Shown piece after piece: positions 1 to 619 of a DNA stretch of 64,000 nt. Below the pieces are notes generated by a model. It was not told the origin of the DNA and did not search any database. It worked only from the letters and a program-made list of their open reading frames with translations. This DNA comes from Escherichia coli (GTDB lineage Bacteria; Pseudomonadota; Gammaproteobacteria; Enterobacterales; Enterobacteriaceae). Numbering within the stretch: the stretch's first letter is position 1; every line of letters starts with the position of its first letter. Made by a program: the position numbers and the translations under genes. Location of the stretch: assembly GCF_045037415.1 (NCBI RefSeq), contig NZ_CP173438.1; one strand, given 5' to 3'.

Positions 1-226
1 CGAGGATTTTTCTGGCTTCGCTACGTTTTTCACGAGCGTCGGCTAGCGTTACATCGGGGTATACGCCAATAGAAAGCATCTTTTCTTTACCAGCAAAGCG
101 GTACTTCATACGCCAGTATTTAGAACCATTAGTGTTAATCAGTAGATACATACCGCCGCCATCAGCAAGTTTATAGGGCTTTTCTTTTGGTTTTGCGGTT
201 TTCACTTTAATATCGGTTAATGCCAT
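1..226 (-). CDS. Site-specific tyrosine integrase, P4-like, N-terminal 75 codons only; gene continues beyond the left edge of the window
   Basis: Manual translation of the minus strand from ATG at 226 (RBS GGAGGA 7 nt upstream) gives MALTDIKVKTAKPKEKPYKLADGGGMYLLINTNGSKYWRMKYRFAGKEKMLSIGVYPDVTLADAREKRSEARKIL, the characteristic arm-DNA-binding N-terminus of P4-family integrases; no stop before position 1. Not in the ORF track because it is open at the edge. Confidence 0.8.
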   Translation of the reverse strand, partial: MALTDIKVKTAKPKEKPYKLADGGGMYLLINTNGSKYWRMKYRFAGKEKMLSIGVYPDVTLADAREKRSEARKIL

Positions 227-524
227 GACATCCTCCGGCTTTTAATGAATTCATGTTCCTGAGGGGGACTTCTGCCAGTAATTAACCTGATACCCCCAAT
301 GCACCCCTTGTATAACAAAGATGTTGTTGAAAGCCGTTGTTATATATCATATTTTACCAATTATGGGGGTGCTGATATTTCAATAGGAAATAATACCCCC
401 TAAAGTACCCCCAAAAGCAACTTGATACGGGGTGAAGTCGGTTGACTTCTGGATACAAAGGAATCCTGATACACAAGGGATTAGAAGGGGGGGTTGACAT
501 CGGGAGAGTTCAGAAGATGTTAAT

Positions 525-619
525 TGGCGGAAGATCACAGGAGTCGAACCTGCCCGGGACCGCTGGCGGCCCCAACTGGATTTGAAGTCCAGCCGCCTCA
601 CCGGAGACGACGATCTTCC
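525..619 (-). tRNA. selC: tRNA-Sec (selenocysteine, anticodon UCA), 95 nt with encoded CCA
   Basis: Reverse complement of 525..619 reads GGAAGATCGTCGTCTCCGGTGAGGCGGCTGGACTTCAAATCCAGTTGGGGCCGCCAGCGGTCCCGGGCAGGTTCGACTCCTGTGATCTTCCGCCA, matching the E. coli selC sequence as I recall it, including the long extra arm and 8-bp acceptor stem. Confidence 0.93.

Follow-up and report, generated by a model that had tools for sequence, protein, structure and literature searches.

Probable P4-type arm repeats in the spacer between an integrase gene and selC in Escherichia coli

Within the window, by which we mean the whole 64-kb stretch of Escherichia coli DNA analyzed here, the 298-bp spacer between an integrase gene and the tRNA gene selC (positions 227-524) holds six runs of five or more G or C residues, together with copies of the hexamer TGATAC. 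Are these motifs read by the integrase, by some accessory protein, or by nothing at all? We consider it likely, from comparison with related sequences, that in this selC island the G5/C5 runs correspond to the attP arm repeats of P4, present here in duplicate, a feature that is real but ordinary. We favor this assignment because the runs resemble the P4 repeats in sequence and layout, are found on both arms, are conserved across genera, and co-vary with the N-terminal domain of the integrase.

The integrase-selC junction

The spacer is bounded by the int start codon (224-226, minus strand) and by selC, which encodes tRNA-Sec (525-619, minus strand; identified by ARAGORN, and by Rfam as tRNA-Sec with 83.8 bits). 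An Rfam search of the spacer region returned tRNA-Sec only, with no RNA family inside the spacer. The open reading frame and its translation place the first 75 codons of a P4-family tyrosine integrase of 396 amino acids at positions 1-226 on the minus strand, a segment that covers most of the N-terminal arm DNA-binding domain. The protein has the Pfam domains Arm-DNA-bind_3 (PF13356, residues 3-88, E = 7e-29), Phage_int_M, and Phage_integrase. These three domains are arranged as in P4 Int, to which the protein shows 44% identity along its full length. A likely ribosome-binding site read from the sequence, GGAGG (232-236, minus strand), is located 5 nt upstream of the int ATG, and the surrounding ccggagg is nearly invariant among the 11 long related spacers from other genera that form our conservation set (hereafter, the relatives).

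The two genes share an orientation (minus strand), selC being the upstream one, and the spacer would therefore hold attL and the int promoter, as in the class of tRNA-associated integrase genes described in PMC2951348. Beyond selC are the chromosomal genes yicJ and yicI. The crossover core corresponds to the 3´-terminal 24 nt of selC (525-548, minus strand), a copy of which (TTCGACTCCTGTGATCTTCCGCCA) is found at the far end of the island in E. coli strain 219. This strain is 100% identical to the window across positions 1-700, and its integrase gene (396 aa) lies at the head of a ~46-kb island flanked by selC and setC, with tia, a type I restriction system, toxin-antitoxin genes, and insertion sequences among its contents. 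The island also encodes an AlpA-family protein, a member of the Pfam family shared with P4 Vis. The far island end was not found within 20 kb and is instead ~46 kb away. About 1,554 of 5,426 complete E. coli genomes carry the integrase-selC junction when a match is required to cover at least 80% of the 700-bp query. We suggest that the spacer represents the int-proximal arm of attL of a selC island of ~46 kb, which would be mobilized by a P4-family tyrosine integrase.

Two side observations concern tandem arrangements at selC. Past the far-end core copy of strain 219 (24336-24290 of locus L084) there is sequence like the start of another selC-island spacer (aaatgcctctcctgacg...ccccttgtaatac), beyond which are a rhuM fragment and then setC; the spacer-like sequence looks like the remnant of a second, formerly tandem island. 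In Kluyvera georgiana (L017) we noted two tRNA-Sec genes (1265-1357 and 1744-1838) ~390 bp apart, with the same promoter-like sequence before each and the upstream copy diverged.

Two modules of G5-core repeats

On the plus strand of the spacer, C5 runs are found at 293-297, 396-400, and 408-412, G5 runs at 263-267 and 365-369, and a G7 run at 487-493. Exact copies of TGATAC are found at 288-293, 423-428, and 467-472, with the variant GGATAC at 451-456. All of the motifs listed in the original prediction exist, and 3 of its 10 coordinates were off by one (TGATAC had been placed at 289-294, GGATAC at 452-457, and the G7 run at 486-492).

Five of the six G5/C5 runs, together with one G4 run, form two modules, each composed of two direct GGGGGT-type repeats and an inverted copy ~30 bp downstream. 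The 12-bp arm-type repeat has the approximate consensus T(T/A)(T/A)GGGGGT(A/G). Read along the int strand, the distal module, module A, consists of TTTGGGGGTACT (404-415, minus strand, with the C5 run at 408-412), TTAGGGGGTATT (392-403, minus strand, with the C5 run at 396-400), 19 bp, and then the inverted repeat GCACCCCCATAA, which reads TTATGGGGGTGC on the plus strand (361-372, with the G5 run at 365-369). The first direct repeat begins 112 nt from the selC 3´ end and is invariant in all 11 relatives. The second starts 12 bp after the first, a period equal to that of P4, and the inverted repeat, which is invariant wherever the relatives have the region, is the counterpart of the P4 repeat at the start of int. 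Here, the int start codon is 135 bp beyond module A.

The proximal module, module B, reads CAAGGGGTGCAT (299-310, minus strand), ATTGGGGGTATC (289-300, minus strand, with the C5 run at 293-297), 17 bp, and then the inverted repeat AAGTCCCCCTCA on the int strand, corresponding to TGAGGGGGACTT on the plus strand (260-271, with the G5 run at 263-267). The strong direct repeat (289-300), which includes the TGATAC copy at 288-293, has G5 in 9 of the 11 relatives and G4 in the remaining two. The rest of the module is imperfect. The weak first direct repeat has a G4 run only, as it does in 10 of 11 relatives, and its function is doubtful because its spacing from the next repeat is variable (5-10 bp). 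The inverted copy has C4 in most relatives, with a C run of at least four in 10 of 11 and C5 in 3 of 11. Module B is confined to the long form of the selC spacer. At 195 bp, the O157:H7 spacer has lost what lies between the first module A repeat and the strong module B repeat, and thus one complete hybrid module remains, with the inverted repeat of module B as its inverted member.

The sixth run, G7 (487-493 on the plus strand, within 487-498 on the minus strand), overlaps a core-proximal GTCAAC unit (493-498) by one base. It is conserved in none of the 11 relatives, most of which have (T/C)AAA(A/T)CCC(C) at this position. A G-quadruplex reading of the runs was set aside: the four G runs of the int strand fall into two pairs ~90 nt apart, and the conserved pattern has inverted copies.

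The other arm of the attachment site lies outside the window and could be read in strain 219, where the far end of the island carries TTTGGGGGTTCT and TATGGGGGTTAC, G5 repeats with a 12-bp period, 56 bp upstream of the 24-bp copy of the selC 3´ end. G5 repeats are therefore present on both sides of the crossover core, placed as expected of arm sites. The integrase gene itself is without any G5 or C5 run.

The layout of module A closely matches that of P4. The P4 record (NC_001609) carries annotations of an "attP arm sequence repeat" upstream of int, with TTGGGGGCATAA and TTGGGGGCATCT as direct copies at a 12-bp period and ATGTGCCCCCAA as an inverted copy, and it is as sequence annotation that the P4 repeats enter our comparison. 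The first P4 repeat is 112 bp from the core, and a second tandem pair is found on the other arm, ~55 bp from the core. The P4 arm repeats are reportedly the work of Pierson and Kahn, 1987, J Mol Biol 196:487. Distance to the core, period, and offset of the inverted copy are 112, 12, and 31 for module A and 112, 12, and 32 for P4. The G5 core is present in five repeats of the spacer (TTTGGGGGTACT, TTAGGGGGTATT, TTATGGGGGTGC, ATTGGGGGTATC, and TGAGGGGGACTT), compared with (T/A)(T/G)GGGGGCA(T/C) in P4. The island thus has the P4-type integrase family, the G5 core, the tandem plus inverted layout, repeats on the other arm, and conservation of the repeats amid diverging flanks. Literature searches on the arm-type sites of P4-like integrases and on GGGGGCAT gave nothing relevant, and the ICEKp1 paper contains no discussion of arm sites.

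The layout is widespread. A scan of one genome per species yielded 80 loci with relatives of the integrase (57-98% amino acid identity), 66 of which have a tRNA gene just upstream of int (Sec, Arg, Thr, Phe, Gly, Ser, or Asn); the window and P4 bring the total to 68 spacers. A motif-blind search for the layout, defined as two direct 7-mers 10-14 bp apart with an inverted copy downstream, found a match in 67 of the 68 tRNA-int spacers, compared with any match in 134 of 1360 shuffled controls. The best match has a period of 11-13 bp and a first copy that starts 111-124 nt past the tRNA end in at least 64 spacers of the 68. Among the 11 relatives, all three runs of module A are invariant while the flanking bases vary, and module B keeps G/C runs of at least four. 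An alignment between islands had been proposed as a check on the original prediction; it upholds the G5/C5 runs, but not the G7 run or two of the TGATAC copies, which are conserved in 0 of 11.

Candidate readers of the repeats and of the TGATAC motifs

The strongest indication of what reads the repeats comes from spacers in which they differ. In 15 spacers belonging to a sister clade, the positions of the G5 repeats, about 112-175 nt past the tRNA end, are occupied by TGTATAG, TGTATAG, and CTATACA (L028, L029, L045, L049, L054, L055, L058, L059, L063, L071-L073, L075, L076, and L079). The G5 and TGTATAG types are separated perfectly by 9 of 100 alignment columns in the N-terminal part of the integrase and by 0 of 299 columns in the C-terminal part. 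The separating positions, in the numbering of the window integrase, are 6, 10, 19, 27, 37, 40, 41, 48, and 85.

Two independent pairs at tRNA-Ser genes are natural mosaics (L038 versus L055/L071, and L070 versus L075). Within each pair, the integrases share 98% identity beyond residue 100 and 47-52% ahead of it; the type of repeat goes with the N-terminal part. At the DNA level, identity is 75-100% from the tRNA gene to ~95 nt of the spacer, 35-65% over the repeats and the first 95-105 codons, and mostly >90% thereafter; the mosaic boundaries fall immediately before the repeats and close to codons 95-105 (a variable stretch at about 1930-2320 in L038/L070 coordinates). The co-variation and the mosaics together are the best available evidence, from sequence, suggesting that the N-terminal arm-binding domain reads the repeats. 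The repeats adjoin the N-terminal coding region, and therefore one recombination tract could swap both without functional coupling.

It is possible, although we think unlikely, that some protein other than the integrase binds the repeats, either one encoded by the element, such as an excisionase of the AlpA/Vis family, or a host factor. In favor of this reading, the strain 219 island encodes an AlpA-family protein (P4 Vis family), and P4 Vis reportedly binds and footprints the attP region (PMC2603039). Neither type of reader fits the comparisons as well as the integrase does. In the two natural mosaics, the repeat type switches with the integrase N-terminal domain while the rest of the spacer and integrase are ~90-100% identical DNA. 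A host factor would leave unexplained why G5 changed to TGTATAG between elements in related hosts. For an excisionase, a separate family of helically phased repeats in the same spacers fits the usual site layout better, in which direct repeats typically follow one another at intervals of one helical turn (PMC7498355).

The separate repeat family accounts for part of the TGATAC pattern. On the minus strand, GTATCC (451-456), GTCAAC (441-446), CTTCAC (432-437), and ATCAAG (421-426) form a four-unit array with a 10-bp period (421-456), of which GGATAC at 451-456 and TGATAC at 423-428 are the first and last units, respectively. When 48 G-type spacers are aligned on the first arm repeat, their consensus has TC at -43, -33, -23, and -13 and a conserved aATCAAg. 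We also observed that this (G/A)TC(A/T)AC-like array, just upstream of the arm repeats, is accompanied by one or two more units near the core (493-498 in the window). The units differ by clade (TCAAC here, TCTAC in L036, and TCCG in P4) and vary independently of the arm-repeat type, which suggests that whatever reads them is encoded by the element and is distinct from the arm-binding domain. They are direct repeats one helical turn apart, located between the core and int, and the strain 219 island has an AlpA-family gene. By analogy with known excisionase sites, the array units are candidate boxes for this AlpA-family accessory protein.

TGATAC as a repeated unit in its own right, as it was first proposed, was not supported: the copies prove to be the flank of an arm repeat, array units, or strain-specific sequence. 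The copy at 288-293 flanks the strong repeat of module B (GGGGGTATCAGG), and its int-strand form, GTATCA, is kept in 9 of 11 relatives. GTATCC at 451-456 is kept in 7 of 11. GTATCA at 423-428 is kept in 0 of 11, with just ATCAAG (421-426) conserved there (10 of 11). The copy at 467-472 is part of GTATCAGG (465-472, minus strand), whose leading G is strain-specific; most relatives have ATATCAGG, none of the 11 keeps GTATCA, and in L011, L014, and L026 the segment is swapped for unrelated sequence.

We therefore regard it as improbable that TGATAC, or GTATCA as read along the int strand, is a true binding motif of its own, for example the WATCAR half of an IHF site or a site for an accessory factor. 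The idea draws on the three exact copies and one variant in one orientation, more frequent than in shuffles or in the remainder of the window, on the TATCAR core of the IHF consensus included in GTATCA(A/G), and on the conservation of ATCAAG at 421-426 in most of the 48 G-type spacers. It has to contend with the absence of the hexamer at 423-428 and 467-472 from every relative, and with the location of the segment required for an IHF gel shift in PAI I536, which is elsewhere, at the equivalent of 309-332. A host-factor reader of ATCAAG is further disfavored by the change of the conserved part with clade (ATCCGG in P4 and ATCTAC in L036). The 13-bp IHF consensus WATCARNNNNTTR was also tried as an explanation of TGATAC and rejected, with no match at up to one mismatch anywhere in 227-524.

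The numbers behind these enrichments bear on whether the motifs need a reader at all. Across 5000 dinucleotide-preserving shuffles of the spacer, at least three copies of TGATAC occurred in 0.02%, at least six G5+/C5+ runs in 0.04%, and three copies of TACCCCC in 0%. A shuffled-sequence check had been put forward with the original prediction, and the named motifs do exceed expectation (at most 0.04% of shuffles), in tests that are post hoc, the motifs having been picked by eye. A motif-blind version, which scores the top count of any k-mer, was marginal (p = 0.03-0.45). The 64-kb window has 39 G5+/C5+ runs, 6 of them in the 298-bp spacer, where 0.15 are expected (Poisson P ~2e-8), and the maximum in any other 298-bp stretch is 3. 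For TGATAC, 3 of 31 copies are in the spacer, compared with an expected 0.13 (P ~3e-4). That the runs reflect base composition or chance and have no function, as the marginal motif-blind tests on the spacer alone and the unconserved G7 run might suggest, is extremely improbable and is refuted for five of the six runs by their density within the window, by the invariance of the module A runs across genera while the flanks vary, and by the constant distance from the tRNA at which the layout recurs in 67 of 68 spacers; it stands only for G7 at 487-493.

The initial reading of all these motifs as sites for arm-type integrase binding or int promoter control thus appears sound for the G5/C5 runs, given the match to P4, the presence on both arms, the conservation, the co-variation with the N-terminal domain, and the self-repression by homologous integrases described below. 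Its inclusion of TGATAC and G7 in a shared repeated motif is not supported.

Regulation of int and comparison with known systems

An experimental reference is PAI I536, located at selC in uropathogenic E. coli 536. Two primers used to study it, MC125 (TTTAACAACATCTTTGTTAT) and MC124 (AGGGGTGTATTGGGGTATCA; PMC7286903), match the window at 312-332 and 288-308, respectively, with one or two differences, and the selC spacers are therefore homologous. In PAI I536, the integrase IntI strongly represses its own promoter, an IHF gel shift requires the segment equivalent to window positions 309-332, and loss of IHF or its site increases promoter firing ~20-fold and destabilizes the island; the study left the integrase binding sites and the transcription start unmapped (PMC7286903). 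Other homologues behave similarly: IntL of O157 represses PintL 4-fold (PMC2951348), and P4 Int is cited as a repressor of its own transcription.

Between the two modules of the window is a block conserved in the 11 relatives (309-344, unstranded), which contains a palindrome formed by TTGTTATA (311-318) and TATAACAA (337-344). The arms are separated by 18 nt, and the palindrome overlaps the segment that IHF requires for binding in PAI I536. Among the relatives, the palindrome arms showed no compensatory changes.

A search of the int strand of the spacer for sigma-70 promoters gave none that was convincing (best score 7.3, below the shuffle median of 9.1), and any overlap between repeats and promoter is therefore only putative in the window. 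In P4 and L036, there is a promoter-like TTGAAA-18-CATAAT with its -10 element inside the first arm repeat. The single promoter-like site from the scan (327-355, plus strand, TTGAAA-17-TATTTT) is directed toward selC, antisense to int, and its hexamers are poorly conserved in the relatives.

We suggest the following model. The 12-bp arm-type repeats would be the expected binding sites of the N-terminal arm-binding domain of the integrase. Module A (361-415), the family-universal module, would together with the G5 pair on the other arm let the integrase bridge arm and core sites to form the recombination complex. Module B (260-310) is an extra int-proximal copy, possibly with a separate regulatory role, and is separated from module A by the block that binds IHF in PAI I536. 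Integrase bound to the repeats would most likely also shut off its own promoter, whose position we infer.

Two extensions of this model are tentative, and we put them forward as possibilities only. In long selC spacers, the module may have been duplicated such that module A serves recombination, while module B and the IHF block form an operator that sets int promoter firing and island stability. Separately, the repeats and the first ~95-105 int codons might constitute an exchangeable specificity cassette, of the GGGGG or the TGTATAG type. If this is true, the nine N-terminal residues that track the repeat switch would be a readable recognition code for the domain family. What would go beyond routine here is the second, int-proximal module with the IHF-binding block, along with the cassette in which repeats and arm domain could be exchanged together; in all other respects, the feature has the anatomy expected of a P4-type attachment site. 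Junctions related to this one are found beside islands of clinical importance, such as PAI I536 and the O157 selC element, and the repeats described here provide exact candidate integrase sites where the PAI I536 study showed tight self-repression (PMC7286903). The natural switch from G5 to TGTATAG, together with the two mosaic pairs, offers a direct route to how the arm-binding domain reads DNA.

Among known systems, PAI I536 shares with this island a homologous spacer in which IHF binds between the modules and lowers the chance of promoter firing. The two differ in cargo, which comprises haemolysin and fimbriae in PAI I536 and tia and a type I restriction system here. The attL/intS region of KplE1 (CPS-53) is similar in that the tRNA gene and int are co-oriented with the int promoter inside attL, and int is repressed both by the integrase, via arm sites, and by the excisionase, via phased sites in two blocks (PMC2951348). 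However, its integrase belongs to another lineage, its IntS arm sites share TAAA, and its TorI sites are GTTCG-like. Some related loci are located at the Arg-CCT tRNA gene, and the KplE1 IntS and TorI sites were considered as a template; TAAA and GTTCG are unrelated to the repeats, and KplE1 serves as an analogue only. A more distant parallel is lambda attP (P1, P2, and P'1-P'3), where the integrase recognizes two classes of site: its N-terminal domain likewise contacts repeated arm sites that flank the core, and IHF bends the intervening DNA (PMC2951348). Lambda differs in the N-terminal domain family, in the sequence and arrangement of the sites, and in that transcription of its int gene does not start inside the attachment site.

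P4 itself shares with this island the integrase family and its domains, a 12-bp repeat with a G5 core, an int-side layout that begins ~110 bp from the core, and a tandem pair ~55 bp from the core on the other arm. The base that follows G5 is T in this island and C in P4, and P4 has a further repeat inside int, whereas the integrase gene of this island has no G5 or C5 run. The module is present twice in this island, where int begins 135 bp past module A; the inverted repeat of P4 instead extends over the int start codon. In P4 (L083, 3914-3926), as well as in relatives with short spacers (such as L016 and L039), we observed that the inverted arm repeat overlaps two in-frame ATG codons, ATG-(T)GC-CCC-CAA-ATG, and integrase bound at such a repeat would cover the translation start as well. 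Finally, the two elements differ in their target, which is selC for this island and leuX for P4.
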